Of a stretch of 64,000 nt of DNA, positions 21,269-63,542 are shown piece by piece. A model generated the notes under the pieces. That model saw only the letters and a list, made by a program, of their open reading frames with translations, did not search any database and was not told where the DNA came from. The number at the start of each line of letters is the position of its first letter. Position 1 is the stretch's first letter. The stretch is from positions 129,084-193,083 of the forward strand of contig JBAZSE010000001.1 in assembly GCA_041662565.1 (NCBI GenBank). The letters are read 5' to 3'. The position numbers were made by a program, and so were the translations under genes. The DNA comes from Patescibacteria group bacterium. GTDB lineage: Bacteria; Patescibacteriota; Patescibacteriia; UBA1558; UBA10009.

Positions 21269-21318
21269 CACTTATGTCTAAAATTTTATATCTTTGGGAT
21301 TTGGCCGACACATGATTT

Positions 21319-21897: not shown

Positions 21898-21914
21898 CAA
21901 TTAACCATAAGTAT

Positions 21915-23417: not shown

Positions 23418-23421
23418 TAAT

Positions 23422-24432: not shown

Positions 24433-24474
24433 AAAATCAATAAATTTTTATTAATTTTTGACCGGTTAGAGGAA

Positions 24475-24530: not shown

Positions 24531-24555
24531 TCATGAAATATGGTTTTTAAAAGTT

Positions 24556-26783: not shown

Positions 26784-27241
26784 TGCGCCAATTTACCGTT
26801 CCTCAATTTATTGATGTGGAAGATAAAATCATCGGCCCGATTACCGTTAGGCAGTTTGTGATTTTAATTGTCGGCGGGTTGTTTATATTTTTGGAATACA
26901 AGCTTTCCGATATCACCTTTTTTTTATTCATCGGCATCCCAACAGCTTTGCTGTTTGTGATTTTTGCTTTTGTTAAAATTAACGGAGTGCCTTTTCATTA
27001 TTTTTTATTAAATGTCGGCCAAACCTTTAAAAAACCGGCTTTGCGGGTTTGGCAAAGAACCAGTGCTTCATTTCACCGCCAAGAAAAAGCTGATACAAGT
27101 GTTCAAGCGGCCATAGCACCTTATGTTGCCCGCTCTATGGATAAATCCCATCTTTCCGAACTGGCTTTATTAATTGATACCGGTGGTGTTTATCAGGGCG
27201 AAGGCAGGGGCCAGGATGCTAATTTTAAATTGGAAATTTAA
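26783..27241 (+). CDS. PrgI-family (VirB3-like) small membrane protein of a type IV secretion system
   Basis: 'FTVPQFIDVEDKIIGPITVRQF' followed by two TM helices is typical of the PrgI family. It lies immediately upstream of the VirB4 genes. Confidence 0.7.
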   Translation: MRQFTVPQFIDVEDKIIGPITVRQFVILIVGGLFIFLEYKLSDITFFLFIGIPTALLFVIFAFVKINGVPFHYFLLNVGQTFKKPALRVWQRTSASFHRQEKADTSVQAAIAPYVARSMDKSHLSELALLIDTGGVYQGEGRGQDANFKLEI

Positions 27242-27251
27242 ACAAATCGTT

Positions 27252-27935: not shown

Positions 27936-28049
27936 TGCAGTAATCCCTTGAATTATGATGTAGGCCTTGAGCGCAGTCGAAAGGCCGATGCTCAAAAGAT
28001 GGCTAATATTACCAAACTACGGGTAGAAGAAAATTAGAAATTAAAAATT

Positions 28050-32637: not shown

Positions 32638-33324
32638 TTGTTTATGTCCGATTTAAATCCAAAACAGCTTAATTTATTCATCAAACTGGCTTTGTTAGTT
32701 TTGGTAATTTTTACGATCCTTATTATTGTTCGTTCTTTTTACGGTTCCAAGGCCTTAAAAGATAGCGAAGAATATTTAGCTTCTTTAACTAATGTGGCTG
32801 TGCAAACAAGTGAACCATCCTTAACGGAGCCAATAACCCGGGCCACTGATCCAACTTTAGGCAATGCGGATGCTAAAAATAAAATAGTTGTTTACAGCGA
32901 TTTTCAGTGCCCTTATTGCGCTACCGCCATGCAAGTTTTAGCCCAGCTGTTAAAACAACATCCGATTGATTTATTGATTACTTGGAAGGATTTTCCCAAT
33001 CCCGATCATCCCCAAGCTCAAGGTGCAGCTGTAGTCGCCAGGTGCGCTGCTGCACAAAATAAGTTTTGGGATTTTCATGATTATCTTTATGCCAACCAGG
33101 ATCAACTCGGCCCTTCTTTGTATCCGCAAATCGTCGCTAGTTTAAAAATGGATCTTAATACCTTTAACCAATGCAATGACAATCAAATAGGCCTGCCTTT
33201 GGTTGAAGAAAACTTTACTGAAGCCATGGGCTTGCGTTTAGACGGCACGCCATATTTGTTTGTTAATAACCAAAAATATGTAGGAGCCATTAATGTGGCC
33301 GAATTGGAAAAAATGCTGAAGTGA
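32638..33324 (+). CDS. DsbA-like thiol:disulfide oxidoreductase (thioredoxin fold, CPYC active site) with an N-terminal TM anchor
   Basis: 'VYSDFQCPYCATA' and the downstream 'GTPYLFVNNQ' (cis-Pro region) follow an N-terminal TM helix. Confidence 0.75.
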   Translation: MFMSDLNPKQLNLFIKLALLVLVIFTILIIVRSFYGSKALKDSEEYLASLTNVAVQTSEPSLTEPITRATDPTLGNADAKNKIVVYSDFQCPYCATAMQVLAQLLKQHPIDLLITWKDFPNPDHPQAQGAAVVARCAAAQNKFWDFHDYLYANQDQLGPSLYPQIVASLKMDLNTFNQCNDNQIGLPLVEENFTEAMGLRLDGTPYLFVNNQKYVGAINVAELEKMLK

Positions 33325-33398: not shown

Positions 33399-35156
33399 AT
33401 GAAATCCACTAAAATCTTATTATTAACTTTTTACTTTCTTGGATTAGGATTCTTAGCTTTGCCTCAAAATGCTATAGCGCAAGACTTAACAGGTCAATGC
33501 TGTGTTTGCATAACTGCCACTGGGGATGTTGTTAATGATACATCCTGCACATTTTATTTAACAGCTGATCAATGTCATGCCAAGAGTACCACTCCTCCCG
33601 ATGTAGGCGAGCAAACAGGAGACATACAAAGGGAGTATACAGCAACAACTTGCAGTTTAGCTGCTTGCTCAAACCCATCATGTCCTGCTTTACCTCAAAA
33701 TCCGCAAGATAGTCAAAGGATTAAACAATCCAATCTAAAATTTATTCCTAATATTTCTATTCCGGGAGCTTCAAAATTTCAACAAGGCGTGGGCACTGAT
33801 GTTACTCAAAGCTTATTGCCCGAGTATATTCAATCTTTGTATAAATTTTTTGTGGGCATTGCGGGAATTTTGGCAGTAGTAATGATTGCCATTGGTGGGT
33901 TAATATGGTTGTTTTCCGGCGGTGATTCCGGAAAAATTACAAAGGCCAAAGAAATAATAGTTGGCGCCATTGTTGGTTTAATTTTGGTTTTAACTTCATA
34001 TTTAATTTTAAATACGATTAATCCCAAGCTGGTCAGTTTTGCACCTTTAGGAGTGTATAAATTTAGTGAATTGCATGTGGGTACTTTTTGCGAGCCAAAC
34101 GAAAGAGTTTTGGTAGATGGCAAGCCAACAGTAGGCAATACTTTAAGATGCGGTCAAAAAGCCACGGTTGAAGGTAGTAATGAATCGTGCTTAGGTTATG
34201 GCTGTCCTAATTATCAAAATGGCGAAGTGTGTTATTTTAATCCAGGTATGCAGGAGGCAAAATGCTTAAGCTGTAATACTACAGATGATGATTTAATGTC
34301 TTTGTATAATATATCTCAAAATGACGCTGGTTGTTCGGCCTTAACGCCGCCTAAAGAGTATCAACCAATTGATCATAAGCAGTTATGTGTTTTTACCGAG
34401 GCTAGTCATGTTGACCCTAATGATGACACTTGTGCCTTAATTGATGTTGATTGTGGTAATGTTAATTCTTGTAGCAGTTATGATGATGCAAAGATAGGGG
34501 ATTTATATTTTGGTCATGGTGTTGGAATAGATTGGGCTGAAAGAAGCCATTTAGAAAGAATTTGTACTAATGACATTAATAATAATCCCAGTAGAACCGG
34601 TATTTGTGAGGCGGAGAATCCTTCTACCGGACAATTTTGGCTGAACGCCAATAAGACCTGTTACATACAAAATGATAGCGATTGCCGAGAAAGAATTGTT
34701 AATCAAGGCGAGCAACAAGTTGTTTCTGGCTGGACATATGATCCTGGTATTCAAGATCAAATGGTTGATGCTTCTGATGATTTAAAACAACTATTAAATT
34801 GTTTAAGGCCTAAATTGGATGAATTTGAAAAACAGCTTAGTCAGCCAGGCAGACCTCTTAAGATCGGTCGGATTTCTTCCATTAGTGACGCTGATTACAT
34901 TGGTAATGTAGGAGCTTGTAAAGTTACACCTAAGCCGGCTAAGTGCGATCATAGTGGAGCTTCATGCCATTATGGAGGAGATCAAAATGACGGTAAATCA
35001 TATGGAGTGGATATTGGCGATGAAGCTAATGGTCAGTATATTGAGCAAGCAGCTTCCGAATGCCAACATGGCTATATGGCTTTAGAGGGTACTCCTGGCC
35101 AACCGGGAGCGCATTATCATATTTCTACAGCTAGTTGTCGCATCCAAGGAGAATAA
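33399..35156 (+). CDS. Cys-rich secreted protein with an internal TrbC/VirB2-like pilin hairpin (two TM helices) and a C-terminal LAS/M15-like metallopeptidase signature
   Basis: Signal peptide present. 'FVGIAGILAVVMIAIGGLIWLFSGGDSGKITKAKEIIVGAIVGLILVLTSY' parallels the pilin domains at 52650 and 54444. The C-terminus carries 'SCHYGGDQNDGKSYGVDI ... AHYHIS', an H-x-n-D ... HxH pattern. Confidence 0.5.
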   Translation: MKSTKILLLTFYFLGLGFLALPQNAIAQDLTGQCCVCITATGDVVNDTSCTFYLTADQCHAKSTTPPDVGEQTGDIQREYTATTCSLAACSNPSCPALPQNPQDSQRIKQSNLKFIPNISIPGASKFQQGVGTDVTQSLLPEYIQSLYKFFVGIAGILAVVMIAIGGLIWLFSGGDSGKITKAKEIIVGAIVGLILVLTSYLILNTINPKLVSFAPLGVYKFSELHVGTFCEPNERVLVDGKPTVGNTLRCGQKATVEGSNESCLGYGCPNYQNGEVCYFNPGMQEAKCLSCNTTDDDLMSLYNISQNDAGCSALTPPKEYQPIDHKQLCVFTEASHVDPNDDTCALIDVDCGNVNSCSSYDDAKIGDLYFGHGVGIDWAERSHLERICTNDINNNPSRTGICEAENPSTGQFWLNANKTCYIQNDSDCRERIVNQGEQQVVSGWTYDPGIQDQMVDASDDLKQLLNCLRPKLDEFEKQLSQPGRPLKIGRISSISDADYIGNVGACKVTPKPAKCDHSGASCHYGGDQNDGKSYGVDIGDEANGQYIEQAASECQHGYMALEGTPGQPGAHYHISTASCRIQGE

Positions 35157-49723: not shown

Positions 49724-50365
49724 ATGAACATTCTTGATTTAAGGCAGCCAGAAGAACAAGAGCCAACAGAGCCCGTTGAGCCAACTGGTTATAATCAAAT
49801 TGCCCCTCGCCATGGCTTTAAAGAATATTTTTTTGAAATAGTAAAAATCATCATTTTTTCCTTGGCCATCATCGTACCGGTTAGAATGTTCGTTGTTCAG
49901 CCGTTTATTGTGGAAGGCGATTCCATGTTGCCTAATTTCCATGACGGCGAATACTTGATTGTTGATGAAATAAGCTATCGCTTTACCGCACCGGTTAGGG
50001 GAGAGGTAGTGATTTTCCATCCACCGCTTTCGCCAAAAACCTATTACATCAAAAGAATCATGGGTTTGCCCAATGAAACGGTGGAATTAAAAGACGGCAA
50101 TATTTATATTTATAATGCCCAGTTTCCCCAAGGCCAATTGGTTGATGAATCCGCCTACTTAACCAATGATAAGGTTAATGAAACCAGCCGGGTGGAATTA
50201 AAAGACGGTCAATATTTTGTGATGGGGGATAACCGTAATAATAGCTTGGATTCCAGGCGCATCGGCCCCATTACCATGAAAAATATCAAAGGCCGGGCTT
50301 TAATTAGGGCTTTTCCTTTTAACAAATTTACTTTATTTAAAGCACCCCAAAATATTTTACCTTAA
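49724..50365 (+). CDS. lepB: Signal peptidase I (S26)
   Basis: 'VEGDSMLPN', 'YIKRIMGLPNE' and 'GDNRNNSLDSR' boxes with an N-terminal TM. Confidence 0.9.
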   Translation: MNILDLRQPEEQEPTEPVEPTGYNQIAPRHGFKEYFFEIVKIIIFSLAIIVPVRMFVVQPFIVEGDSMLPNFHDGEYLIVDEISYRFTAPVRGEVVIFHPPLSPKTYYIKRIMGLPNETVELKDGNIYIYNAQFPQGQLVDESAYLTNDKVNETSRVELKDGQYFVMGDNRNNSLDSRRIGPITMKNIKGRALIRAFPFNKFTLFKAPQNILP

Positions 50366-51684
50366 TGAATACACCTAAAAAAGAATTCAAAAAAAAGAAA
50401 TCCTTACAACTCGTTCGTGGCATGAAAGATATTTTGCCCGAAGAACAGCGTTATTGGGATTTTTGTCGCGATTTGGTTGATAAATTGGCCCGGGCTCATG
50501 GTTTTGAAAGAATCGATACGCCGGTGTTGGAATTTACCGAACTTTTTGTGCGGGCGGTTGGCCAAGTAACCGATATTGTGGAAAAAGAAATGTATTCCTT
50601 TGTTGATCAAGGGGATGATCATTTGGCTTTGCGCCCCGAAGGCACGGCCGGTGTGGTTAGATCATACATTGAACACGGCATGTTAAATTTGCCCCAGCCG
50701 GTAAAGCTGTATTATTTTGCTCCCATGTTTAGGCGTGATAAGCCCCAGGCCGGCAGATACCGCCAGCATTTTCAATTCGGTTTTGAAATAATCGGCGAAG
50801 CCGAGGCCGTGGTTGATGCCCAGGTTATTTTAATCGCTTACAAAATTTATCAAGCCATAAATTTGCCGGTTAATATTCAAATCAACAGTATTGGCTGCCC
50901 TTCTTGTAGGCCGGAATACGAAAACGAACTTAAAGATTATTTAAAAAAGCAAAAAAACAAGTTAAGTGAAATTTCCCAGGCGCGTTTGATTAAAAATCCT
51001 ATGCGGGTTTTGGATTCCAAAGAAAAAGAAGATGCCGAAATTATCGCCGAAGCTCCCCAACAGATTGATTTTTTGTGCGAAAATTGCCGCAACCACTTTA
51101 CTCAAGTTTTGGAATATTTGGATGAATTGGAAGTTCCTTATTCTTTAAATCCCACTATCGTGCGGGGTTTGGATTATTATACCCGCACTGCTTTTGAAAT
51201 TTGGGCCGGCACCGAAGAAGGCGGCAGACAAAGCGCTCTTGGAGGCGGTGGCCGTTATGATGGCTTAGTGGAACAGTTGGGCGGTAACCCCACGCCGGCT
51301 GTTGGTTTTGCTTGCGGAGTAGAGCGTTTTGTTTCGCAAATCAAAGAAACCGATTTTAAAGTTCCTGATCGTTTGCGCCCGGAGATTTTTTTGGCGCAAT
51401 TAGGCATTGAGGCCCGAAAAAAGGTCTTGGCTTTGTTTGAAGATTTGCAGGCCGCCGGTATTAAAGTGGTGGAAAATTTTTCCAAAAGCGGGCTTAAGCC
51501 CCAATTGGAAATGGCCAATAAACTGGGGGTAAAATTCACCATGATTTTAGGGCAAAAGGAAATTATAGACGATACCATCATGATTCGGGATATGGAAAAC
51601 GGTATACAGGAAGTGGTTGATTTCCATAAAGCCGTGGCGGAAATTAAAAAGCGCTTGGAAAAATCAGTGGTGAGTGATAAATAA
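50365..51684 (+). CDS. hisS: Histidyl-tRNA synthetase
   Basis: 'VRGMKDILP', 'LRPEGTAGVVRS' and 'YYTRTAFEI' class II motifs plus the anticodon-binding domain. TAATG overlap with lepB. Confidence 0.93.
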   Translation: MNTPKKEFKKKKSLQLVRGMKDILPEEQRYWDFCRDLVDKLARAHGFERIDTPVLEFTELFVRAVGQVTDIVEKEMYSFVDQGDDHLALRPEGTAGVVRSYIEHGMLNLPQPVKLYYFAPMFRRDKPQAGRYRQHFQFGFEIIGEAEAVVDAQVILIAYKIYQAINLPVNIQINSIGCPSCRPEYENELKDYLKKQKNKLSEISQARLIKNPMRVLDSKEKEDAEIIAEAPQQIDFLCENCRNHFTQVLEYLDELEVPYSLNPTIVRGLDYYTRTAFEIWAGTEEGGRQSALGGGGRYDGLVEQLGGNPTPAVGFACGVERFVSQIKETDFKVPDRLRPEIFLAQLGIEARKKVLALFEDLQAAGIKVVENFSKSGLKPQLEMANKLGVKFTMILGQKEIIDDTIMIRDMENGIQEVVDFHKAVAEIKKRLEKSVVSDK

Positions 51685-51738
51685 TATAATTATTTAAGTA
51701 GCTTTTAAACTGAGCGGTGCCCCTCGGCAAGCTCGGGA

Positions 51739-51823
51739 CAAATAGTTTTCAGCAAAGCTGAAAACTATTTGACTATTATTTTTAAATATGTTATTACTAT
51801 ATAAGAATATAGTAATAATTTTT
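51739..51823. promoter_or_regulatory. hisS terminator hairpin, then a perfect 12-bp palindrome and a third copy of the half-site, in the rpsU promoter region
   Basis: Terminator stem AAATAGTTTTCAGC / GCTGAAAACTATTT (51740-70). Palindrome TTATTACTATAT-aaga-ATATAGTAATAA (51791-51818). ATTACTATATA recurs at 51831. A strong SD AAGGAAGGTGA precedes rpsU. Confidence 0.5.
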
Positions 51824-51869
51824 TGTAAAGATTACTATATAAATCTTAAAGAAAGGAAGGTGAGTTATC

Positions 51870-52130
51870 ATGTTGGAAGTAAAAAAGAAAGATAATGAAA
51901 ATTTTGAATCGCTAATCAGGCGTTTTACCAGAAAAACCATTCAGAGCGGCAAGTTGATTCAAGCCAAAAAAATCAGGTTTCACCAAAAACCCATTAGCAA
52001 AGTGGCCACAAAAGCCAAGGCTATTAGGCGTGGCGAACTTAGAAAAGAGCGCGAATACTTAAGAAAAATCGGCAAACTTGATGATTTATTGGAAAAAAAC
52101 AGCCGCCGGGGCTTTAAAGGTAGAAAATAA
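51870..52130 (+). CDS. rpsU: 30S ribosomal protein S21 with a basic C-terminal extension
   Basis: 'ENFESLIRRFTRKTIQSGKLIQAKKIRFHQKP' matches S21, and there is a strong RBS. Confidence 0.8.
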   Translation: MLEVKKKDNENFESLIRRFTRKTIQSGKLIQAKKIRFHQKPISKVATKAKAIRRGELRKEREYLRKIGKLDDLLEKNSRRGFKGRK

Positions 52131-52165
52131 CGCCTTGTTCAGTATTCAACTTCTAAAGAAATATT

Positions 52166-52609
52166 ATGTCTAATTTATCGGCTCGTTTGGAAGAGGATTT
52201 TACCATTGCCCTTAAAAGTAAAGATGCGATTAAAGTTGGCGCTTTGCGTTTATTGAAAGCGGCCTTAAAAAACGAGCAAATTCAAAAAAAAGCCGAATTG
52301 CTTGATGAAGATATAGTCAAGGTTTTGCGGCGCGAACTTAAAGCCAGGCAGGATTCTATAACCAGCTATTTGGCTGCCAACAGGCAGGATTTAGTTGCTC
52401 AAGAACAACTGGAAGCCGATTTAATAAGCGCTTATTTGCCGGCAGAAATGCCTGAAGAAGAGTTGAGTAAAATAATTGATAAGATATTGTCTGAAAACAG
52501 TTTTACGGCCAAAGATTTTGGTCAAGTCATGAAATTGGTTATGGCTCAAACCAAAGGCAATGCCTCGGGTAATGCCATTAGCGCTTTGGTTAAAAAAGCG
52601 CTTAAATAA
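52166..52609 (+). CDS. GatB/YqeY-domain protein
   Basis: 'LLKAALKNEQIQKK ... LRRELKARQDSI ... ISAYLP' YqeY pattern, 147 aa. Confidence 0.8.
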   Translation: MSNLSARLEEDFTIALKSKDAIKVGALRLLKAALKNEQIQKKAELLDEDIVKVLRRELKARQDSITSYLAANRQDLVAQEQLEADLISAYLPAEMPEEELSKIIDKILSENSFTAKDFGQVMKLVMAQTKGNASGNAISALVKKALK

Positions 52610-52649: not shown

Positions 52650-54431
52650 ATGCTATTTAGAGCTTTTAATCGGAATATTAAAACAGCTACTTTACTAACA
52701 AGTATGGTTATTTTAGTAGCTGTTTTTGTTTTGCCAATACTGGCTTTAGCCCAAACTTCTTTAGGATTTGAACCCGTTGGATCAACAGGTTTGGGAACCC
52801 GTGATCTTAAAGATATCATCATCCTGATTATTAAAATCTTTTTGGGCTTTTTAGGCATTATTGCCGTTGGCTTAATTATCTGGGGCGGTTATACCTGGAT
52901 GACTTCCGGCGGAGAAGAAGACAAAATTTCCGAAGGCAAAAAGATCATTACCAACGCCGTTATTGGCTTGGTTATTATTTTATCTTCTTACGCGATTGTG
53001 CTATTTGTTGTGAGCAAATTTGATGTTGCCAATCAGCCGGGAGGAAATGTGCCTAACAGAGATCGGCGTGAATTTGATGTTAATATCGGAGCTTTTGGCG
53101 GCGGAATTTTAAGGAGCGTTTACCCGGAGCCGGGCGATCGGGATGTGCCCAGAAACGCCATGATCATGGTTAGCTTTAAAGAAAGAATGGATATCTCTTC
53201 CATTATTGAAAGCAATAATCAGCCGGTTGCTTGCGCCAACTTGCCCGAAAATATAACTTGCGGTTATTTAAAAGAATTTACTTTGCCCGATGAATCAGTT
53301 GTGCCGGCAGTTAAAATCATCAATCAAAATGATGATTCAAATTGGCTTTTGGCTAATCAAGTGGTGGTAACTACCGTTGACCGCCAAAATTTTGTTTTTA
53401 ATCCCGCTCCGCTTTTGGGTTCGGCGGATGGAGAGACCGCTTATTCGGTTAATCTTTCGGAGAGGATATTAAAAGATAATGGCCAGGCGGCTTTTTATTC
53501 CGGCGGCTATACTTGGTCGTTTGAAGTCAGTAATGTTTCGGATGTAACCGGGCCTCGAGTGGAAAGCGTATTGCCTAAGGCCGGTTCCACGGTAGCCAAA
53601 AATGCGGTTATTCAAATAAATTTTAATGAGGCCTTAAGCTTAATTTCCGCCACCGGGCATTCAACCGGTAATCCGGGTGAGGCATTTAATAACTTGTTAA
53701 TTAGCTATATCAATGATCAAGAAGCTCCGCAATATTTAAGTGGAGAATTTACCATCAGCAACAGGTTTAGAACAATAGAATTTTTACCCGATCAGGCCTG
53801 CACGGTTGATGGCCAAGAAGTTAGGGCAAATTCTTGTGGGGTTGCGCCAAAGTGTTTGCCAGCCAGCCAAATTATCACTATTTTAGCCAAAGCCGCCACG
53901 GTTAATGAAGCAGGCGAAACCGTAGATTTATTTTCCGGTTTAACCGATGCTTCCGGCAATTCATTGGATGGCAATGCCAATGGTGATTCTCAAGGCCAGC
54001 CAACTGATAATTTTACTTCAAGTTTTAATACTAATAACGAATTGGATTTAACTCCGCCGGTTATTGAAAACATTACTCCGGATCAGGGTTCGGCTAACTC
54101 CCCTAAAAACAGCAGGATTAATGCCGGTTTTAGTGAACAATTAAGAAGCAGTACCGTTAACAGCGATAATTTTAAGGTTTACAAATTTGCTTGCGACGGA
54201 CCTGCTTTCCCCGAGCAGTTAAGCTGTTATCCCGAAGGCGGTTTTAATGTTTATAAGGAAAATAGGGAAAATAAAACCAAAGCGATTTTAAGAACTTACT
54301 ATCCGTATCTGGATCCTTTAACCGTTTATAATCCCAGGTTAACAGCCGGCATCCAAGATTTGTATCAAAACTGTTTTAATCCGGCAACCGGCCCATGCGC
54401 AGAGGGGCAAGTGAGTCCAGGTTGCAGATAA
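52650..54431 (+). CDS. Surface protein with an N-terminal VirB2/TrbC-like pilin domain fused to three Big_5 (SbsA-type Ig-like) domains
   Basis: Signal peptide plus a two-helix hairpin 'IIAVGLIIWGGYTWMTSGGEEDKISEGKKIITNAVIGLVIILSSY'. Big_5-like 'SVYPEPGDRDVPRNAMIMVSFKERMD', 'VESVLPKAGSTVAKNAVIQINFNEAL' and 'IENITPDQGSANSPKNSRINAGFSEQL'. Confidence 0.7.
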   Translation: MLFRAFNRNIKTATLLTSMVILVAVFVLPILALAQTSLGFEPVGSTGLGTRDLKDIIILIIKIFLGFLGIIAVGLIIWGGYTWMTSGGEEDKISEGKKIITNAVIGLVIILSSYAIVLFVVSKFDVANQPGGNVPNRDRREFDVNIGAFGGGILRSVYPEPGDRDVPRNAMIMVSFKERMDISSIIESNNQPVACANLPENITCGYLKEFTLPDESVVPAVKIINQNDDSNWLLANQVVVTTVDRQNFVFNPAPLLGSADGETAYSVNLSERILKDNGQAAFYSGGYTWSFEVSNVSDVTGPRVESVLPKAGSTVAKNAVIQINFNEALSLISATGHSTGNPGEAFNNLLISYINDQEAPQYLSGEFTISNRFRTIEFLPDQACTVDGQEVRANSCGVAPKCLPASQIITILAKAATVNEAGETVDLFSGLTDASGNSLDGNANGDSQGQPTDNFTSSFNTNNELDLTPPVIENITPDQGSANSPKNSRINAGFSEQLRSSTVNSDNFKVYKFACDGPAFPEQLSCYPEGGFNVYKENRENKTKAILRTYYPYLDPLTVYNPRLTAGIQDLYQNCFNPATGPCAEGQVSPGCR

Positions 54432-54443
54432 TATTTTTAAACA

Positions 54444-57400
54444 ATGTTTTTAAAACAAAAATCAGCAATCATTTTAGCGGGGCTCTTCCTAATCATACTG
54501 GGCGTTTTGGTTATTCCTCAATTATCCTTAGCCCAAACCTCTTTAGGGTTTGAACCTGTTGGATCAACCGGTTTGGGAACTCGCGATCTTAAGGATATTA
54601 TCATCCTGATTATTAAAATCTTTTTGGGCTTTTTAGGCATAATTGCCGTTGGCTTAATTATCTGGGGCGGTTACACTTGGATGACTTCCGGCGGAGAAGA
54701 AGACAAAATTTCCGAAGGCAAAAAGATCATTACCAACGCTGTTATCGGCTTGATTATTATCTTATCTTCCTACGCGATTGTGTTATTTGTTGTTAGTAGA
54801 TTTAGTCCTGCCACTCTTAATTCCGGTAATATTAATGTTAATGAAGATAATGGCAATGGAGGCAATGGTGATGGCGGAAATAATGCTATTTTTAGAGTTA
54901 CTAACCTTCGGCCGCGCGGTAATTTAAGAATCCGCAATGTGGTTGTTCAGGCCTCATTTAATAAGGTTATCAATCCGGTTTTAATCGGCGAGAATAATGT
55001 TTTAACCAATCAACAGGCCATTAAGTTAGAAAGAGCCAATGCCAATGGCGGTTTTGAAAGGGTTGAAGGCAGTTTAACCATTGATCCTAATAACCATCAA
55101 CGGGTTTTATTTACTCCCAACTCTACTTGCCCCGAACCAAACCAGAATTTATTCTGTTTAAATTATGACGAAAATAATCCAGATTTAAACAGGTATAAAA
55201 TTACGGTGGAAAATGATCCGGCAATTTCTTTGCGGAGTGTCGGGGGATTAGCCGTTAGCTGTGTTGCCAATAGTTGTAGTGCGGAATTTACTGTAGGCGG
55301 TATTGTTGATACGCAAAACCCGGAAGTGAATTTTACCGAAGCCATTAACAGGGCTAATAATCATTTGGCTTTAAATAATAATGTAATTTTATCTCTTGAT
55401 GAAGCGTATCAATTATTAGCTCGGGCTACTGATGATGGCGGTTTAAGTGGAGTTGATTTTTATATTGTCAATGAATTTTTATCTTTTAGCGAACCTGCCG
55501 AAGAAGAAATTTTGGATTTTGTTGCCCAGGCCCAATGGGCCACCAACGGCTTGGAGTCAGGTACATTACAATTGGGCGCCAGGGCCTATGATTTAGCCGG
55601 CCAACAATCTGGTTTGGAGCAAGTAACTGTTCGCCTAAGGCCGGCTTATTGCTTTAATAACCAATTGGACGAACAACAAGGAGAAACCGCGGTTGATTGT
55701 GGCGGTTCTTGCGGGGCTTGCGATGGCGGAAGTTGTGGCGCCATAGTAGAAAATCAATGCACCCAACCGGATAACAGTTCTTGCGCTTCCAATGTTTGCA
55801 ATGTTGAATCCTGTTTGTGCCAAGGGGGCCCAAGAATTATAGCTGTTAATCCTGGTAATGGGGCTATTGGTAATTGGATTACCATAACTGGCAGAAATTT
55901 TGGTGATCAAGTCGGGCGGATTTATCTTGGAGAAACGGAAGCCCATTTGCCACCGAGGAATTTTTGCCCCACTACCTGGTCCAATGAGCAAATTATTATT
56001 GAATTGCCGGTTGGGATATCCGTCGGCAATGGCCAAATCAGAGTTGTTACCAGTGATGGCTTAATGAGCAACCAAACCGATTTTTTGGTTAACAATGTTG
56101 AGCGCCCCGGTTTATGCGCTCTTAGCCAACAGTCAGGTAGATTTGGCGATCGTTTGAATTTAGTTGGTTATCAGTTTGGTAATTTAGCGGACCAAAATAT
56201 TTCTAAAGATGTTTATTTTGGACAGGTTGAACAAAATTTTTCTTTAAGCAATCAGAGCTGGCGAACGGTTATTGGCCGAGGAATTATTTCCGGTAATTTA
56301 CCTAATTTAAGCGCTGGGCAAACTTCGGTTAAAATCAGGGTTAATGGCCAAGATAGCAATGCTTTGCCATTTACAATTTTGGGCGAACAAAATGTTCCGC
56401 GGATTACAGATTTTGAGCCCAAATTTGGCAATGCCGGAGAATATATAAATATTTACGGTTCGGGTTTTGGCGAATATAGAGAAGGGCAATCTTTAGTTAC
56501 TTTTGCCCAAAACGTTTCCGGCAGTTTTGATTTTCCTGACGAATGCCGGGCTGGTAATTCTTTTTGGCAAGACGGTCATATTATTGTTAAAGTGCCCGAA
56601 GGGGCATCAGACGGCATTTTTAAGGTGATAACCTTTGATCAGCAGCAAGTTGAGGCGCCAGCCAGTTTTGATTTTCAAGCCGAAGCCGAACTGACTCCGG
56701 GCATCTGTAGTTTGTATCCCCGGGAAGGTTTGGTAGGTTCGGTTTTTGATGTGGCGGGAGAATATTTTAATAACGGAATTTTAAAACTAGGTGAACTTGA
56801 TTTAAATGTTGAACCCGATAACGCCCAGAGGCATTTTAATAATGTAAGAGTTCCGGTGGGAGCGCAGTCGGGTCAAGTTAAAGTTGTCAGAGGGGATTTG
56901 GTCAGTAATGCTCTTGATTTTATAGTGACTCCTGCTGTTGGTCAGGAACCGCAAGAACCCAATGGTTATTATCAATGGCAATTTACCACTTGTGATAATT
57001 GCTTGGTGCCCGAAGTGGTAGAAAGCCAAAGCTGTCAGCTTGGCTTGGCTTCGCCTACGCCCAGAAAAAACAGCCAGGGTAATTTTGTTGATACTTTAAT
57101 TTCCGCCGCTTTTAATACGGATATGAACAATGATTCATTTGATCTTGGTGCAACCGTAGTTATTAGTTATTGTGGTAACGGGCAAGAACCGGCTAATTGT
57201 TCGCAGTTGGATAATTTAAACGGTAATTTTAATTTCGCCGAAACCAATACTGGCGAAAATTTCACTTTGGCTTTAACCAATCCGCTTAATACTTCAAGTT
57301 GGTATCGGGTAGTTTTGCAGAATTTAACAAGCCAAGCGGAAAATTTGCCTTTGGCAGAATCTTATATTTGGAATTTTAAAACCAAAGATGATAACAGTTC

Positions 57401-60400
57401 TTGCCAAATTACCAATGTGGGCGTTAATCCCAGACAACGTTTGATTAGCAATAATTCGCCTGTTTATGTAAATGACAATATTAAATATCAAGCCAATGCT
57501 TATAATTTGGAAAACTGCAATATTTGCCCGGATCGTTTTACTTGGTCTTGGGATTCTTCCAATCAAGATAAAGCCCAAATAGATAAAGCTTCCCATATTA
57601 ACCAAAGCATGTTGCAAGCTAAAGCGGTAACGGAAATTTCGGCTGTGATAACCGCTACGGCCCAAGATAACCAAGAACATAGCGCCACCGGCCAAGCCAG
57701 TTTGGATATTGTGCCCAAGGATTTTAGCATTTTATCGGATGCTTCCTGCCTTAATAAACCGCAAAGCCCAAGCCCGGCGCCATCATTTACCAAGACCTGT
57801 TTAAACGCTAAAATTTCCGTGCAGTTTGATTCTTTAATGCCGGATAGCTTGCTTGGCGGCGCTCCCTTAACTTTAACGCAAACAGCCGCTAACGTTACCG
57901 TGCCTTTGGTTTTGGAAAGCGGTCTTTATTATGAAGTAGGCGGACGCCATGGCTTAAGAGGTTTAGTGGCTTCGCCCGAACAAAATTTGTTGCCAAACAC
58001 TTGGTATGAGGTTGCTGTTAATCCTAATTTAAAAAATCTTGCCGGCGGCTGGCTGGTGGGCAAAACCAGCTGGCAATTTAAAACCAAAGCCAGTAATGAA
58101 CTTTGCCAGTTTGATAAAATTTTGGTTAATCCTGCTTCGGCCGTTTTGCAAATAAATGCCAATCAAAATTATACTGCCCAAACATTGGATGGCGCTTCTT
58201 GCCAATTGTTAAAAAATCCAGAAGATTTGCGTTTTTCGTGGCGAGTGGAAAATGAGGCCATTGCCAGTATTGCTCCCGGCAATCAAAATCAAGCTGTAGT
58301 TAATGCCAAAGAAATTGGTGAAACTTATATCCGCGCCACAGCCGCTGGCAAAGAAAATAGCGGAGAAAACGGCCGTTTAAGAGTTAATAATAATGAAGTA
58401 GAAGGCCCTGTTGATTTAACCATTACCAGGCATCAGCCAATAGGCGAACTGGTTTGCCCCAATGCTTTGGTACAAGTGCGGTTTAATTTAGAGCTTAATT
58501 CGGCAACATTAACCGAGGCTAATTTTACGGTTTTAGCCACCAGCCAGGCCTGCCCCAATGGCTGCCCTGTCCGCACTCAAATTACCGCCAATCAAAATAA
58601 AACAGTAGTTAATTTATTGCCAGCTTTAAATGCCAATTGGGATCAAGGTACGGTTTATACGGTTAAGGTTCATGGGGGCGAAGCCGGAATTAAGGCCAAA
58701 ACAGGAGAATCGTTAAATAATACCGGCTGTTCTCAAGGAATGGCTTGGGAAGATGGCCAAAGTTGCAATTGGTCGTTTACCACTAAAAATGATATTTGCC
58801 AGCCAAAACAGGTGGTTGTAGAACCGGCAACGGCAACAATAAATGCCGGCAGTACCCAGGATTGGTTGGGTTCAGTTTTAGCTCAAGATGGCACTTTATT
58901 GATGGATAAAATCGACAGTTGGGTTTCAGGCGATGATCGTTTTGCCGATGTTACCCAGTCGGTAGACGATAAATCACTGGCAGTTTCTACCGGCAAAGCT
59001 GAAGGCCAGGCAATTATAACCGCTTCCATTGGACAAATTAAAGGCCTTGCCATTTTAACCGTGAATGATTTATTAAACGGCCCTCATATTTTAAGTAACA
59101 TCCCCATTGATGGGGCAACCCAAGTTTGCCGCAATGCTTTAGTTAAAGTTGAGTTTGATAAATTGCTAGATGTTAAAACAGTTAATGCAAATACTTTTAA
59201 AATAGAATATCAATCGCCTCAACAATTTAACGGTTGCAGCCAGGTAGCGGTAAATAAAAAATTGCCAACTTTGTGGCCTACTCAAGGGTTTATTGGTAGA
59301 TTATTTAACAACCTGGTTGCCGATGCCTTTAATTGGTTGAAAGATAAATTGTTTAGCAGGGTCAGCGCTGCTGTTTATTGGTGCCCGGTATCGGGCCAGT
59401 GGTTAAGTGAAAATTATCAAGGCCAAACAGCGGTCCATTTTTCCTTAAGCAAAGAAATGGAAAAAAACACCTTGGTTCGGGTAACGGTGAGGGGAGGAGT
59501 AGCCGGTGTTAAAGCCACCAATGGTTTGCCTTTGTCTGGAGAACTTAATGAGCAGGGAAATTACAGTTATCAGTTTACTGCCGGAGAAGATGTTTGTAAT
59601 TTGGCTTTTGTAACTGTGTCGGCAAACCAAGTTTCGGGTGCTTCAGATTGGACTTTTATCACCAGTTTTGATAATCAAACTGATAATAATTTAAATGATG
59701 GCGCAACTTTTGATACGATTTCTGATCGGGATAAAAAATATCAGGCCGCCGGTTTTAGTTCGGCCGGCGAATTGTTAGTGCCAATTGCCGGCTTGGCTGG
59801 CCATGATTGGAGTTGGGAATGGCAAACTTCGGATAACAGCGTGGCTTCATTATTGGCTACCCAAGATGACTTTTTAGTGGTGGGAGCTAATAATAAAAAT
59901 GGCGAAGCCAACATTACGGCCATTGCCAAGTATCCCGAAAATTATCCTAAAAAATCTTTATCTGCTGTTGGACGGGCTGTTGTTGATTTATGCGTTAATC
60001 CTTGGAATCCTGCCGGTCAACAAGGAACAGACGTCAAATTTACCGATCAGACCTATAATTTTTCCATAAAGTATTGCCGGGATAATGGAGCGGTGGGTCT
60101 TGAAGATGATTTGCCGACACTTGGTTTGCCGCAGGCCATTGAACATAATGCCAACGATCCGGCTAAAGATGATTTAAAGAGAGAATATTTAATTCCGGTG
60201 CCTACAACCGGCGATGTGGTTGGTTTAAGGATTTATACCAATGACTCCCATTTATCGCCCTTGGCCTGGTATCAAAAAAACATTACCGTTAAGGGTAGGC
60301 CTAATGCCGGCACGGTTGATGGTTATCAATCCATTACCGATGGCCGAACTGTTTATGTGGCCGCGGCTAACGCTCATATTGGTCAAAATTTATTGGGCTT

Positions 60401-63400
60401 TAATTCTCAAATTAACCGCAGTTTGGCTAATTTGCCTGTTAAAACCTATAAAGCAGATAATTTTTGGAGCCATGCCGCTGGCCTGGTTGCCAGTTTGTTT
60501 ACGCCTGCCAAAGCTGCAGTTGCTCCAGGGAATAATAATGGTAATGCTTTAAATGCCTTAAATTTTGCGCAAAATCTAAAGCAATTGGAGAATTTAAACA
60601 ATCAGCTTTATCAGGGCTCATTAACAGCTCAAGAGCAAGCGGATTTTCGCCAAAATTTAAATGATTTCAACCAAAATTATAACAGGCAAGAACTGCTTAA
60701 TGCTGGGGTTGATCAAAATCAGCTTAACGCTTTTGAGGCCAATTTAAATAATTTAAATCAAGGTTTTAATCAGCAGAATAACAATCAAAACAACTTTGAT
60801 GATAATTATTTAAATGATCAAATTAATAATATTGATTGGGCCTTTACCAATATTTATCTGCTTTCTTATAACCAAAACGCCAATCCGGCAACTTTGGAAA
60901 TAGTTAAGCGTTTGCTAGACAATTGGAATTTTAATACCAACATCAATAATCCCGTACTTAAAGATAAGCTCATTAGGGATACGATTCGTTTAGCCGATCT
61001 AACAGCTGTTGCGGGCAGTTTGGATAGTTATCAATCTTCCCACGGAGCCAAGTATCCGACTCTTTCGGCTGGCACTTTTTTAAGCGGCCGAACCAATAGC
61101 AAGTGGCCTTCTTGGAATCAAGGTTTGGCTTCCGAATTAAAATCAGGCGGACTGCCGGTTGATCCGATTAATAAATTCAACCAATGTATTGTTTGTACCG
61201 AACCGCAATTATTAAATTCCGGTTTTGAAGAAAATGAGAATTTTAATGACCAATCGGCTTGGAGAAAAGTTGGCGAAGAAAGAGTAGGAGATCAAATTGC
61301 GGTAACGCAAAATCAAAATCAATCATATATTAAAGAAGGCAATTCTTCATTATCAATTTTAGCCCCCAGTGCGCGAGGAGGCGTAGCCCAATCAGTCAAT
61401 TTACTGCCTAACACCACTTATGAACTAAGTGCCTGGGTTTATCTTGTTTCTGGCCGGGCACACCTAACCTTTAATGGGGCGGATTACGGCAATGAATGGT
61501 TAAGCCCGCCGGATAAAACCGGCTGGGTCATGCTTAAAAATCGGTTGGTAACCAATGCTTTTGCCGGCAACGGCCAAAACGGCACTGATAACTTTATTTT
61601 TATCCGCTCGCACGAAGGCGGAGCCCAATTTTATGTTGATCAAGTAAATATTCAAACTCAAGGCGGTAATTGCGGTTATGACAGAGAAACATGTTGGAAT
61701 CCTAATGCCAACCAAAGCCAGGGCGCTTTTGCTTGCGATGCCGAATCCTATTTTTATTCCTATCAAAGCTTGGGTCAAAGCAACTACCTCTTGGCCGCCA
61801 AAATGGAAACAACCGCTGATTGGCGTGGCGGACAGTTAAACAATCATTTTCGTTTGGATATTGAAAAAGTTTTAGGTTGCACTACCCAAGCCGTTGGCGG
61901 CTACTGCGGGGATGCCCAAATTAATGATCAAGAACAATGCGAACCGGGTATGAGTTACAATTATTGCCCAGGTGGGCATAATTGGAATAGTCCGCTGGTG
62001 CTGGGTTGTTATGAAATGGGAACGCCCAAACAGTGTACTTGGGTAAATCCCGATGATGATGTTAATTTTTCGTGTTATGGCTTAAGCCCAGAAGAATGTT
62101 GCGGCGGTTATTGCGGGGATGGCATTTTAAATACCCAAGAGGCCGGTTACGCCAATTTGGCTCTTGATGAAGAATGTGATATTTCCGCCAGAGGCAATGA
62201 AGGTTTTGCCAAGGGCGCGCGTGTAGGTAGTGCTGATGATAATCAATATGCTTGTAGCCAAAATTGTAAGGATGTTGGCGGTTGGTGCGGTGATGGCCGG
62301 GTACAAAGCGTTTATGGAGAAAACTGTGATGGTTCGGCTGCTGGCTGGGCCTGTACTGGCGGAGGCGTGCCAAGCTGTTCAGCCCAGAGTTGCCAAATAT
62401 CTTGTAATAGAGGTGATCCTTACCAAGGCCAATGCAATGATGGCATTAAACAGCCCCAGGAATTTTGCGACGGCCAGATTGGAGTTGGTGCTAATGAAAT
62501 TTGCAATAATACTTGTAGCGATTCCATTTGCGTTGATGGATATAGAAAATGCGGCGATACTTGTGTAGCGATAGATGTTAATAATTGTGCCAGTTGCGGT
62601 AATCAATGCGCTGACCCTGCAAGCGGCAATGGCCGAGCACAGTGCCGAGAATTTGATCATGAATATCCTTCTTGCGGCGTAGTTTGCTATAATGGTTTTC
62701 ATCTGGATGGCGGCAGGTGCTTGCCCGATGCGGTTTGTGGTAATGATATTATTGAAGAAAACGAGGCCTGCGATGACGGCAATCATAATGGCAGTAATAA
62801 TTATTGCAAGAGGGATTGTTCCGGTTTTGATTTGGGTAACAGGATTTTCTTGGATAATTTTGATGATGGCGGTGTTTGGGCTGTGCCGGGCGGGCAAACT
62901 TGGGTAGCCAGAGAACATGGAGCTTTTGAAGAGGCCATTTGGTCGGTTGTTGATTTGGCAAATGACAGCAATCCATATACTTTGCAAGGAACCAACCAAA
63001 CCGACGGTGATCCTGCTTGTGGAAATTCCGAAAGATGGTATTTAAAATCTTTAGTGCCGGCTAGTTTTAATAACCAAAATGTGACAATTGTTTCCAGAAT
63101 TAAAATTAAACCCGGCAACCCCAATACTTTGATTTTAGGCAATTATACTTATAATCAAAACAATCCCGGTCAAGAATCCGCTTATGCATTGTGGGCTAAT
63201 TACCGAGGCACTCATCGGTTAAGTTTGATTAAAGTTAACCGCATGGATAGGCCGTTAAATGATGAAGGGCTGGTAACTCTTTTGGATAATTTTGGCGCCG
63301 GCCAAGCAATCCCAACCGATGAATGGTACTGGCTGGCCTTAAAAATAACCCATAACGGCAATAACGCAACCATTAACTATATTGATTGGCAGGATGGCCA

Positions 63401-63542
63401 AGCCATGCCAGATGTGGCAGATTGGCATGAAGCCGGTGATAATAATAACAATGCTTTAACCGGCGGAACTTTTGGCTTAGCCGTTTGGGGTGACTGCTCA
63501 ACCAGCTGGTATGATGATTTTCAAGTTTATCAGAATCAATAA
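54444..63542 (+). CDS. Giant (3032 aa) multidomain surface protein. N-terminal VirB2/TrbC-like pilin domain, then Big_5, four IPT/TIG, Big_2, an Asn/Gln-rich region, CBM4/9-like, Myxococcus-type Cys-rich repeats and a C-terminal LamG/ConA-like domain
   Basis: The N-terminal ~115 aa are about 90% identical to the 52650 gene. IPT runs over ~55825-56950 ('GPRIIAVNPGNGAIGNWITITGRNFG', etc.). Big_2 runs over ~58100-59080. N/Q-rich region over 60530-60960. 'NSGFEENENF ... AW ... YELSAWVY' (CBM) near 61200-61640. 'CGDGxxxxxExCD' repeats over 62100-62830. A jelly-roll tail over 62850-63540. Confidence 0.75.
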   Translation: MFLKQKSAIILAGLFLIILGVLVIPQLSLAQTSLGFEPVGSTGLGTRDLKDIIILIIKIFLGFLGIIAVGLIIWGGYTWMTSGGEEDKISEGKKIITNAVIGLIIILSSYAIVLFVVSRFSPATLNSGNINVNEDNGNGGNGDGGNNAIFRVTNLRPRGNLRIRNVVVQASFNKVINPVLIGENNVLTNQQAIKLERANANGGFERVEGSLTIDPNNHQRVLFTPNSTCPEPNQNLFCLNYDENNPDLNRYKITVENDPAISLRSVGGLAVSCVANSCSAEFTVGGIVDTQNPEVNFTEAINRANNHLALNNNVILSLDEAYQLLARATDDGGLSGVDFYIVNEFLSFSEPAEEEILDFVAQAQWATNGLESGTLQLGARAYDLAGQQSGLEQVTVRLRPAYCFNNQLDEQQGETAVDCGGSCGACDGGSCGAIVENQCTQPDNSSCASNVCNVESCLCQGGPRIIAVNPGNGAIGNWITITGRNFGDQVGRIYLGETEAHLPPRNFCPTTWSNEQIIIELPVGISVGNGQIRVVTSDGLMSNQTDFLVNNVERPGLCALSQQSGRFGDRLNLVGYQFGNLADQNISKDVYFGQVEQNFSLSNQSWRTVIGRGIISGNLPNLSAGQTSVKIRVNGQDSNALPFTILGEQNVPRITDFEPKFGNAGEYINIYGSGFGEYREGQSLVTFAQNVSGSFDFPDECRAGNSFWQDGHIIVKVPEGASDGIFKVITFDQQQVEAPASFDFQAEAELTPGICSLYPREGLVGSVFDVAGEYFNNGILKLGELDLNVEPDNAQRHFNNVRVPVGAQSGQVKVVRGDLVSNALDFIVTPAVGQEPQEPNGYYQWQFTTCDNCLVPEVVESQSCQLGLASPTPRKNSQGNFVDTLISAAFNTDMNNDSFDLGATVVISYCGNGQEPANCSQLDNLNGNFNFAETNTGENFTLALTNPLNTSSWYRVVLQNLTSQAENLPLAESYIWNFKTKDDNSSCQITNVGVNPRQRLISNNSPVYVNDNIKYQANAYNLENCNICPDRFTWSWDSSNQDKAQIDKASHINQSMLQAKAVTEISAVITATAQDNQEHSATGQASLDIVPKDFSILSDASCLNKPQSPSPAPSFTKTCLNAKISVQFDSLMPDSLLGGAPLTLTQTAANVTVPLVLESGLYYEVGGRHGLRGLVASPEQNLLPNTWYEVAVNPNLKNLAGGWLVGKTSWQFKTKASNELCQFDKILVNPASAVLQINANQNYTAQTLDGASCQLLKNPEDLRFSWRVENEAIASIAPGNQNQAVVNAKEIGETYIRATAAGKENSGENGRLRVNNNEVEGPVDLTITRHQPIGELVCPNALVQVRFNLELNSATLTEANFTVLATSQACPNGCPVRTQITANQNKTVVNLLPALNANWDQGTVYTVKVHGGEAGIKAKTGESLNNTGCSQGMAWEDGQSCNWSFTTKNDICQPKQVVVEPATATINAGSTQDWLGSVLAQDGTLLMDKIDSWVSGDDRFADVTQSVDDKSLAVSTGKAEGQAIITASIGQIKGLAILTVNDLLNGPHILSNIPIDGATQVCRNALVKVEFDKLLDVKTVNANTFKIEYQSPQQFNGCSQVAVNKKLPTLWPTQGFIGRLFNNLVADAFNWLKDKLFSRVSAAVYWCPVSGQWLSENYQGQTAVHFSLSKEMEKNTLVRVTVRGGVAGVKATNGLPLSGELNEQGNYSYQFTAGEDVCNLAFVTVSANQVSGASDWTFITSFDNQTDNNLNDGATFDTISDRDKKYQAAGFSSAGELLVPIAGLAGHDWSWEWQTSDNSVASLLATQDDFLVVGANNKNGEANITAIAKYPENYPKKSLSAVGRAVVDLCVNPWNPAGQQGTDVKFTDQTYNFSIKYCRDNGAVGLEDDLPTLGLPQAIEHNANDPAKDDLKREYLIPVPTTGDVVGLRIYTNDSHLSPLAWYQKNITVKGRPNAGTVDGYQSITDGRTVYVAAANAHIGQNLLGFNSQINRSLANLPVKTYKADNFWSHAAGLVASLFTPAKAAVAPGNNNGNALNALNFAQNLKQLENLNNQLYQGSLTAQEQADFRQNLNDFNQNYNRQELLNAGVDQNQLNAFEANLNNLNQGFNQQNNNQNNFDDNYLNDQINNIDWAFTNIYLLSYNQNANPATLEIVKRLLDNWNFNTNINNPVLKDKLIRDTIRLADLTAVAGSLDSYQSSHGAKYPTLSAGTFLSGRTNSKWPSWNQGLASELKSGGLPVDPINKFNQCIVCTEPQLLNSGFEENENFNDQSAWRKVGEERVGDQIAVTQNQNQSYIKEGNSSLSILAPSARGGVAQSVNLLPNTTYELSAWVYLVSGRAHLTFNGADYGNEWLSPPDKTGWVMLKNRLVTNAFAGNGQNGTDNFIFIRSHEGGAQFYVDQVNIQTQGGNCGYDRETCWNPNANQSQGAFACDAESYFYSYQSLGQSNYLLAAKMETTADWRGGQLNNHFRLDIEKVLGCTTQAVGGYCGDAQINDQEQCEPGMSYNYCPGGHNWNSPLVLGCYEMGTPKQCTWVNPDDDVNFSCYGLSPEECCGGYCGDGILNTQEAGYANLALDEECDISARGNEGFAKGARVGSADDNQYACSQNCKDVGGWCGDGRVQSVYGENCDGSAAGWACTGGGVPSCSAQSCQISCNRGDPYQGQCNDGIKQPQEFCDGQIGVGANEICNNTCSDSICVDGYRKCGDTCVAIDVNNCASCGNQCADPASGNGRAQCREFDHEYPSCGVVCYNGFHLDGGRCLPDAVCGNDIIEENEACDDGNHNGSNNYCKRDCSGFDLGNRIFLDNFDDGGVWAVPGGQTWVAREHGAFEEAIWSVVDLANDSNPYTLQGTNQTDGDPACGNSERWYLKSLVPASFNNQNVTIVSRIKIKPGNPNTLILGNYTYNQNNPGQESAYALWANYRGTHRLSLIKVNRMDRPLNDEGLVTLLDNFGAGQAIPTDEWYWLALKITHNGNNATINYIDWQDGQAMPDVADWHEAGDNNNNALTGGTFGLAVWGDCSTSWYDDFQVYQNQ

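Follow-up and report, generated by a model that had tools for sequence, protein, structure and literature searches.

What does the pilin of a type IV secretion system (T4SS) do at the head of a giant surface protein, and how do two neighbouring genes with otherwise unrelated products come to carry it in nearly identical form? Both questions are raised by two adjacent genes, here called A (52650–54431) and B (54444–63542), in a stretch of 64,000 nucleotides (nt) from a contig of an ultra-small Patescibacteria bacterium (JBAZSE010000001.1, positions 129,084 to 193,083). This stretch is referred to as the window, and all positions are counted in it. Judged by family profile and predicted topology, the products of both genes open with a full and genuine T4SS-pilin module, made up of a signal peptide and a two-helix hairpin, as a preliminary description of the window had suggested. 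The near-identity of the two modules is the product of gene conversion. The cassette system with interchangeable cargo that had been proposed for this locus was not borne out.

The direct repeat and the pilin module

Genes A and B lie on the + strand, 12 nt apart, and are probably co-transcribed; a promoter and terminator scan around the pair revealed terminators no better than those of shuffled sequence and no clear operon boundaries. Under the NCBI name 'Ig-like domain-containing protein' (Ig, immunoglobulin), both products are already in the databases (A, MFA6304274.1; B, MFA6304275.1). The parts of the two genes are the following (aa, amino acids; pLDDT, predicted local distance difference test):

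52650–54431, + strand: gene A, candidate modular pilin of 593 aa with signal peptide, VirB2-like hairpin, disordered linker and Ig-like Big_5 body (open reading frame (ORF), Pfam)
52650–52754, + strand: signal peptide of A (aa 1–35), ending ...LALA before Q, its AxA aligned with the cleavage region of free-standing pilins
52746–53021, + strand: repeat copy 1, gene-conversion tract, encoding the mature pilin module of A (helix 53–84, loop TSGGE, helix 90–127)
53022–53099, + strand: flexible linker of A (aa ~125–150), starting where free-standing pilins end; pLDDT <50 at aa 126–147
53100–54428, + strand: predicted extracellular body of A, an Ig-like (Big_5) array (Pfam Big_5 twice, 77 bits)
54444–63542, + strand: gene B, candidate modular pilin of 3032 aa with a giant multi-domain body (ORF, Pfam)
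54528–54803, + strand: repeat copy 2, gene-conversion tract, encoding the mature pilin module of B (aa 29–120)
54804–54890, + strand: Gly/Asn-rich linker of B (aa ~121–149), SPATLNSGNINVNEDNGNGGNGDGGNN
55830–59540, + strand: stalk of B with TIG, Big_5 and Big_2 Ig-like domains (aa ~463–1700; Pfam)
61209–61457, + strand: carbohydrate-binding-like CBM_4_9 domain of B (aa 2256–2338), borderline at 24.4–25.8 bits against a cut-off of 25.9
61760–63539, + strand: Cys-rich repeat region and unassigned C-terminal domain of B (sequence, Pfam)

The sole long direct repeat between positions 52000 and 64000 comprises 300 nt with 90% ungapped identity (52722–53021 and 54504–54803). Its core of 276 nt, or 92 codons (52746–53021 and 54528–54803), contains 20 differences, corresponding to 92.8% nucleotide identity. 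Eighteen of these are synonymous and two are conservative (V/I and K/R), and as proteins the modules are 97% identical; the peptide WGGYTWMTSGGEEDKISEGKKIITNAVIGL is found in A and B alike. The two copies stand in the same orientation at an offset of 1,782 nt. These values confirm the near-identical repeat reported initially; its coordinates had been given as 52749–53010 and 54529–54800, which is otherwise right but a few bases off, the first interval being about 10 nt short. The signal-peptide regions 5' of the core are homologous but diverged, and past residue ~125 the two proteins have no significant similarity, with just weak matches between Big_5 repeats (E about 0.05).

Two rival explanations, namely an assembly artefact or protein-level co-evolution of the modules without DNA exchange, have nothing in their favour beyond the existence of the repeat, and we assign them practically no probability. 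Assembly duplication is ruled out because the copies differ at 20 sites (7% of their bases), because the databases list each of the two proteins, with identical sequence, under two NCBI accessions and on two contigs (as they do for the product of a third gene, C, introduced below), and because analogous repeats in the same arrangement recur in other species. Co-evolution without exchange is refuted by the synonymous divergence described in the next section.

The assignment of the module to the T4SS pilins is based on family T4SS_pilin (PF18895, Pfam gathering cut-off 26.6 bits), which in a Pfam scan is matched by A with 31.9 bits and by B with 28.4 bits (31.9 bits for the N-terminal piece of B), and by the isolated A module with 35.7 bits. 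The module is therefore not a generic signal peptide plus transmembrane (TM) segment. In an alignment of 35 members, composed of the A N-terminus and 34 free-standing pilins, all match PF18895 and 24 also match TrbC/VirB2 at E≤1e-3; a sub-threshold match to NF045849, a Mycoplasma family of pilin-like conjugal transfer proteins of integrative and conjugative elements, agrees with this assignment. A search with the module alone retrieved free-standing Patescibacteria pilins of 107–141 aa with 48–65% identity to it. These free pilins (~120 aa) end about 8 aa past helix 2, exactly at the start of the A and B linkers, and A has in common with the 34 aligned ones the signal peptide, the AxA site, an N-terminal GLGT.DL, the two helices and the loop. 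The free pilins and the A family have the same invariant Gly, Trp and Lys positions; the module is the best-conserved part of that family, and its motifs GLGT.DL, LGFLG and W.TSGG.E.K..AKK are found in free pilins as well. What sets A and B apart is their size of 593 and 3032 aa, unlike the ~100–140 aa of described PF18895 members.

The signal peptide and two TM segments expected from the preliminary description were recovered by hydropathy analysis of A, which resolved segments at aa 9–41 (signal peptide) and at aa 52–84 and 98–127 (two TM helices). In an AF2 model of A (mean pLDDT 79.7), the signal peptide forms a helix at aa 7–36 and the hairpin consists of helices 53–84 and 90–127 with pLDDT 93–97. 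With the signal peptide removed and two helices spanning the membrane, the topology predicts a C-terminal body outside the cell, and this location fits the Ig-like, carbohydrate-binding and Cys-rich nature of the bodies. A pilin of the type IV pilus (T4P) was considered and rejected, as a class III signal peptide is absent and the hairpin is unlike the single N-terminal helix of T4P pilins.

Downstream of the module, the genes diverge into unrelated multi-domain extracellular proteins, in agreement with the first reading of the locus. The body of A is beta-rich in the AF2 model (pLDDT 85–96) and resembles Ig arrays such as the S-layer protein SbsC, cadherins and titin in Foldseek searches; with the whole A model, these returned generic Ig arrays only and no specific adhesin. 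In the stalk of B, Pfam places TIG in two stretches at aa 463–547, Big_5 at aa 869–980, 1110–1214 and 1546–1598, and Big_2 at aa 1035–1080. The Cys-rich region contains a DUF4215 match (aa 2747–2792) that at 19.5–22.7 bits is sub-threshold (cut-off 27), and this domain is annotated in many B homologues. Neither C-terminus (A, ...GQVSPGCR; B, ...DDFQVYQNQ) has an LPXTG sorting signal or a C-terminal hydrophobic or TM segment.

The position of the disordered, low-complexity linker exactly at the natural C-terminus of a pilin suggests yet another reading, in which proteolysis of the linker separates a normal pilin from a surface protein that is released or held separately. An S26-family peptidase shortens the pilin TrbC of plasmid RP4 at the C-terminal end, and a gene of the signal-peptidase family is conserved 2.3 kb upstream of the pair. 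However, this peptidase looks like an ordinary LepB, and the linkers, which are wholly different between A and B and among orthologues, contain no conserved cleavage motif. A pro-protein of this kind thus appears improbable to us.

An ancient gene pair and gene conversion of its modules

Within the window, a scan with the module hidden Markov model (HMM) found exactly three copies, in A, B and C, all of them in full-length genes; it yielded no silent ones in these 64 kb. The HMM was also applied to 82 loci, comprising the window, a Komeilibacteria relative (L001) and 80 loci of different species fetched with an alignment of the A family. In 75 of these loci an A-type gene is directly followed by a giant B-type gene, both headed by the module, and the remaining seven are cut by contig ends. 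Gene order in L001 is the same from a Mur ligase through A–B, and the genes for LepB, HisRS, S21 and YqeY lie directly upstream of the pair in 63–67 of the 81 related loci. The arrangement of A followed by B is an ancient, fixed gene pair in many Patescibacteria, among them Komeili-, Falkow-, Uhr- and Magasanikbacteria and their relatives.

Full-length A retrieved 474 homologues, nearly all of 530–690 aa with PF18895 and Big_5, and full-length B retrieved more than 100 proteins of 1,700–4,700 aa with PF18895, whose bodies combine Big_5, TIG, DUF4215, LamG-like, fn3 and VWA domains in mixes that vary between lineages. An exhaustive profile search with the A family returned 2,585 cluster representatives at E≤1e-30, and across the phylum many different bodies carry the module at their N-terminus. 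In three species a free-standing pilin gene of 125–170 aa is interposed between A and B (L048, labelled Uhrbacteria, 8735–9247; L062, 11914–12321; L072, 7065–7439), and these pilins are nearer to the B module (0.52–0.55) than to the A module (0.39–0.46).

Two side observations concern the same set of homologues. Members of an A-like sub-family of ~840–950 aa (for example P0392, P0401 and P0408) match the A profile in two stretches, which suggests an inserted or duplicated body domain. Many of the related metagenome-assembled genome records (L002–L081) bear the title 'uncultured Gammaproteobacteria bacterium', and a single one is called 'Candidatus Kapaibacterium'; yet they contain the same A–B pair and upstream block as loci labelled Patescibacteria, which suggests mislabelled source taxonomy.

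Within a genome, the protein identity between the A and B modules averages 0.61 and ranges from 37% to 99% among 75 species, compared with 0.47–0.49 between genomes. Were the similarity of the two modules old, an A module would be expected to group with the A modules of other species, and this is not consistently the case. Nine genomes reach at least 0.82: L050 (0.99), the window (0.97), L045 (0.95), L074 (0.91), L011 (0.89), L001 (0.85), L063 (0.83), L003 (0.82) and L079 (0.82). These nine are not mutual nearest relatives but come from different parts of the group, whereas other genomes have an A–B module identity of just 0.37–0.50 and a clear A–A and B–B orthology. When 53 pairs of nearest-neighbour genomes, with neighbours defined by the A body, were classified, the modules were concerted in both genomes in 16 pairs and in one genome in 10; 19 pairs were orthologous and 8 mixed. 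The nucleotide repeats at the 5' ends of the paired genes differ in their end points between species and never extend into the bodies:

L045: 5' repeat tract of 323 nt, 97% identity
L050: 5' repeat tract of 306 nt, 92% identity
L074: 5' repeat tract of 304 nt, 88% identity
L011: 5' repeat tract of 251 nt, 90% identity

Further evidence comes from synonymous sites. Between the A and B modules of the window, synonymous divergence (dS) is 0.33 and non-synonymous divergence (dN) 0.01, whereas the two orthologous module comparisons between the window and L001 give dS values of 1.2 and 2.3; the A–B pair of L001 itself has a dS of 0.9. Since synonymous divergence cannot be reduced by selection that acts on the protein, a dS of 0.33 for paralogues against at least 1.2 for orthologues lies beyond the reach of protein-level co-evolution. 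The near-identity of the modules is the result of episodic gene conversion of the 5' ~250–320 nt, which has occurred independently in several lineages. Conversion has been confined to the sole stretch with enough homology and was followed by strong purifying selection. The event in the window is not recent, because its two copies have already diverged by 7%.

The same data bear on the proposal that recombination swaps cargo on a common pilin head for surface variation. It has some appeal in view of a 276-nt direct repeat in the same orientation at a distance of 1,782 nt, of the many bodies headed by this module across the phylum and of the lineage-dependent domain content of B-type proteins. 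Yet in 75 of 82 loci both genes are represented by orthologues whose order is fixed, none of the three module copies in the window is silent, and the 7% divergence implies that there was no recent exchange. Moreover, recombination between the repeats could only delete the body of A, not swap cargo. Recombination affects the conserved anchor and not the variable body, and gene conversion that homogenizes the anchors explains the repeat. Therefore, we regard a cassette system as very unlikely. The pair was also considered as the target of a diversity-generating retroelement, a candidate that was rejected, because the Pfam matches of the window include no reverse transcriptase and because the short repeats inside B resemble domain repeats or the product of chance.

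Possible roles of A and B and a possible link to the secretion system

The window is chromosomal DNA of Patescibacteria (Candidate Phyla Radiation, CPR) with genes for EF-P, SSB, S6, RecG, ParAB, RelA/SpoT, DprA, Der, HisRS, S21 and YqeY. It also contains a T4SS-like cluster, in which the third module is found. The relevant features are:

26783–29912, + strand: monoderm-type T4SS core with PrgI/VirB3-like, TrsD-like and VirB4-like ATPase genes
32638–33324, + strand: gene for a DsbA-like thiol-disulfide oxidoreductase directly upstream of C (Pfam Thioredoxin_4, DSBA)
33399–35156, + strand: gene C (585 aa), end of the T4SS-like cluster; MFA6304258.1, NCBI name 'pilin'
49724–52609, + strand: block upstream of A–B with signal peptidase I (49724–50365), HisRS (50365–51684), S21 (51870–52130) and YqeY (52166–52609), assigned by Pfam

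The T4SS core consists of a PrgI/VirB3-like (26783–27241), a TrsD-like (27174–27935) and a VirB4-like ATPase gene (28050–29912), recognized by Pfam PrgI, TraG P-loop and AAA_10 and by sub-threshold matches to NCBIfam TrsD and VirB4_plasma. The PrgI-like ORF and the TrsD-like ORF, which has a TTG start, overlap by 68 nt, and the true TrsD start probably lies further downstream. After the VirB4-like gene come several unassigned ORFs, the DsbA-like gene and then C. That a third pilin hairpin sits inside C, as first described, is supported by a PF18895 match of 44.4 bits. This hairpin is internal (aa 139–206, nt 33813–34016; hydrophobic segments 143–176 and 180–209), is 46% identical to that of A over 54 aa and is flanked by Cys-rich domains of ~110 aa on the N-terminal and ~380 aa on the C-terminal side. 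The C-terminal one (378-aa query) has no match in Pfam or the PDB. The DsbA-like enzyme could serve such Cys-rich exported domains.

What, then, might A and B do? The reading we favour, which we consider evenly balanced between true and false, is that they are 'modular pilins' in which a VirB2-like pilin, a linker and an adhesin body are joined and which reside in the membrane or on the T4SS pilus. Export by Sec and cleavage by signal peptidase would leave the hairpin in the membrane with both ends outside, and Ig-like stalks with carbohydrate-binding and Cys-rich distal domains would project from the cell. The module is probably still handled by the pilus-assembly machinery of the T4SS, because it has kept the invariant residues of free pilins and not just their hydrophobicity. 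A and B might then be drawn from the membrane pool of T4SS pilins, become minor (tip or basal) subunits of the pilus or attach next to it, and serve this secretion system as adhesins for the host cell, with gene conversion keeping both anchors compatible with the same partner. A link to the pilus is supported by the three species in which A and B flank a free pilin gene and by the module-bearing gene C, which closes the T4SS cluster of the same window. A more far-reaching version makes A and B real subunits of the T4SS pilus, that is, the VirB2-type pilin would be a carrier of grafted giant adhesins, the 'missing adhesins' of this system, and recurrent conversion would ensure that the two carriers continue to suit one and the same filament or assembly platform. 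We consider this version conceivable but rather doubtful.

Several observations weigh against the modular-pilin reading. Incorporation of A or B into a filament, and the formation of a pilus by this T4SS, are predictions only, and since a body of 330 kDa per subunit misfits a VirB2-type lattice, any incorporation would have to be sparse. The pair lies 17 kb from the T4SS cluster of the window, and in the 81 related loci tblastn with the T4SS proteins of the window found no VirB4, PrgI or TrsD within 10 kb of A–B, whose fixed neighbours are housekeeping genes. TrbC/VirB2 (PF04956, cut-off 27.9 bits) remains under its cut-off in A (21.0–23.7 bits), B (16.5 bits) and C (16.7 bits). A PDB profile search with the 35-member module profile produced just a chance match to a G-protein-coupled receptor (E 1.2), and when the hairpin model was compared with the PDB by Foldseek, no match fell below E 0.6; an archaeal conjugative pilin (8dfu) came 28th, with E 2.7. 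Helical hairpins are too simple for a test of kinship of this kind. Furthermore, the modules have diverged to 37–55% identity in about a third of the lineages, so that identity between the A and B modules is not required, and conversion needs no functional reason, as adjacency and similarity suffice.

In the main rival reading, the pilin-like hairpin was recruited as a two-helix anchor of general use in the membrane, which would make A and B core envelope proteins independent of the T4SS, for instance surface fibrils, an S-layer-like coat or adhesins that are never part of a pilus. In at least 63 of 81 loci the pair is part of the housekeeping block LepB-HisRS-S21-YqeY, and VirB4 is never within 10 kb of it. 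This location agrees with such a role, as do the resemblance of the A body to SbsC and other Ig arrays, the very large size of the bodies and the lack of detectable similarity of the module to solved T4SS pilins. On the other hand, the invariant loop and N-terminal residues common to the A family and the free pilins are more than a lipid anchor needs, free pilin genes are found inside the A–B operon in three species, and C, in which the same module is present, closes the T4SS cluster. We take the anchor to be a serious possibility, although not our first choice, and retain the modular pilin as the preferred reading.

Two further loci of the window were recorded in passing. Directly upstream of the T4SS-like cluster, the block 15444–25524 begins with five tandem paralogues of ~480–500 aa (15444–23417), each with a C-terminal PEP-utilizers mobile domain and with one 192-aa ORF between them, followed by a gene of the histidine-phosphatase family (23422–24432) and a stand-alone PPDK_N ATP-grasp gene (24556–25524), an unusual expansion for a reduced genome. 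A second giant-protein locus occupies positions 1–12015. Its first ORF, open at the window start, encodes more than 2,550 aa with a CBM_4_9 domain and has neither the pilin module nor a hydrophobic segment; it is followed by genes for a 1040-aa polytopic membrane protein (7660–10782) and a 409-aa protein without family match. A homologue of this giant ORF is located less than 10 kb from the A–B pair of L047.

Known systems and significance

Fusion of a pilin to an adhesin has a precedent in the modular type IV pilins of Gram-positive bacteria, for example PilB and PilC of Streptococcus sanguinis, which join a pilin module and an adhesive one and are minor subunits used for attachment. Like A and B, they combine a polymerisable pilin head with an adhesin or lectin module at the C-terminus. 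However, they belong to an unrelated filament system, the type IV pili, whose pilins have a single N-terminal helix and a signal peptide of class III. Their bodies are much smaller, and pilus incorporation, which has been shown for them, is a proposal for A and B. PrgB-type adhesins of Gram-positive conjugative T4SSs are likewise large multi-domain surface proteins, thought to mediate cell–cell contact for a monoderm T4SS, but they lack a pilin module and are attached to the cell wall by an LPXTG signal at the C-terminus. A and B carry the pilin hairpin at the N-terminus and do not belong to this type, because they are without an LPXTG signal. Tandem pilin-module genes with recombining copies are also known from the amplified VirB2 paralogues of Bartonella (trw) and Anaplasma and from systems of pilin antigenic variation. 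There it is the exposed pilin that varies, whereas in A and B the buried anchor is homogenized and the exposed bodies are stable orthologues.

The closest relatives are the VirB2-like pilins of the Patescibacteria themselves (Wang et al. 2023, PMC10633639; Quinonero-Coronel et al. 2025, PMC12102498), which are from the same phylum, belong to PF18895 and have a signal peptide and a hairpin as in A and B. The T4SS of this phylum, essential in the single species tested, is unusual among monoderm systems for possessing VirB2-like pilins, and its function is not known (PMC10633639, PMC12102498, PMC12857230, PMC11665869). These pilins are essential in one Saccharibacterium, no adhesin has been found for this T4SS (PMC10633639, PMC12102498, PMC12857230), and in cultures of Patescibacteria the genes for T4SS pilins rank with those of highest expression (PMC10936435). 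They may be organized in 'VirB2 arrays' of two to eleven tandem genes with a mean identity of 25% and a maximum of 54% (Quinonero-Coronel et al. 2025, PMC12102498). As in these arrays, A and B are tandem module genes in a genome with a monoderm-type T4SS (PrgI, TrsD, VirB4). The described pilins are, however, free-standing proteins of ~100–140 aa next to virB4, whereas A and B carry bodies of 470 and 2,900 aa and reside in a housekeeping block, and the array maximum of 54% compares with 97% for the A–B modules (37–99% across 75 species). The survey of Quinonero-Coronel et al. (PMC12102498) reports no T4SS adhesins. That these proteins contain both domains is already known, as both are annotated in databases; a full-text literature search found no paper on pilin-fused giant proteins, on the conserved A–B pair or on its concerted evolution.

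The modules of A and B provide a clean natural example of gene conversion limited to one domain of otherwise unrelated neighbours. The pair, whose genes are among the largest of very small genomes and which most of the sampled species in a large branch of the phylum possess, is also the most direct candidate so far for the means by which Patescibacteria grip their hosts, a plausible role whose assignment is inferential, and it supplies two named proteins to be sought in metaproteomes and cryo-tomograms. Should the hairpin serve as an anchor only, the pilin fold would have been reused as a general anchor of surface proteins, and PF18895 matches should not be counted as pilus subunits without a check of protein length. 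If, however, A and B were true pilus subunits, they would represent a novel mode of target-cell recognition by a type IV secretion machine, and they would be determinants of host specificity for a whole class of uncultured epibionts.

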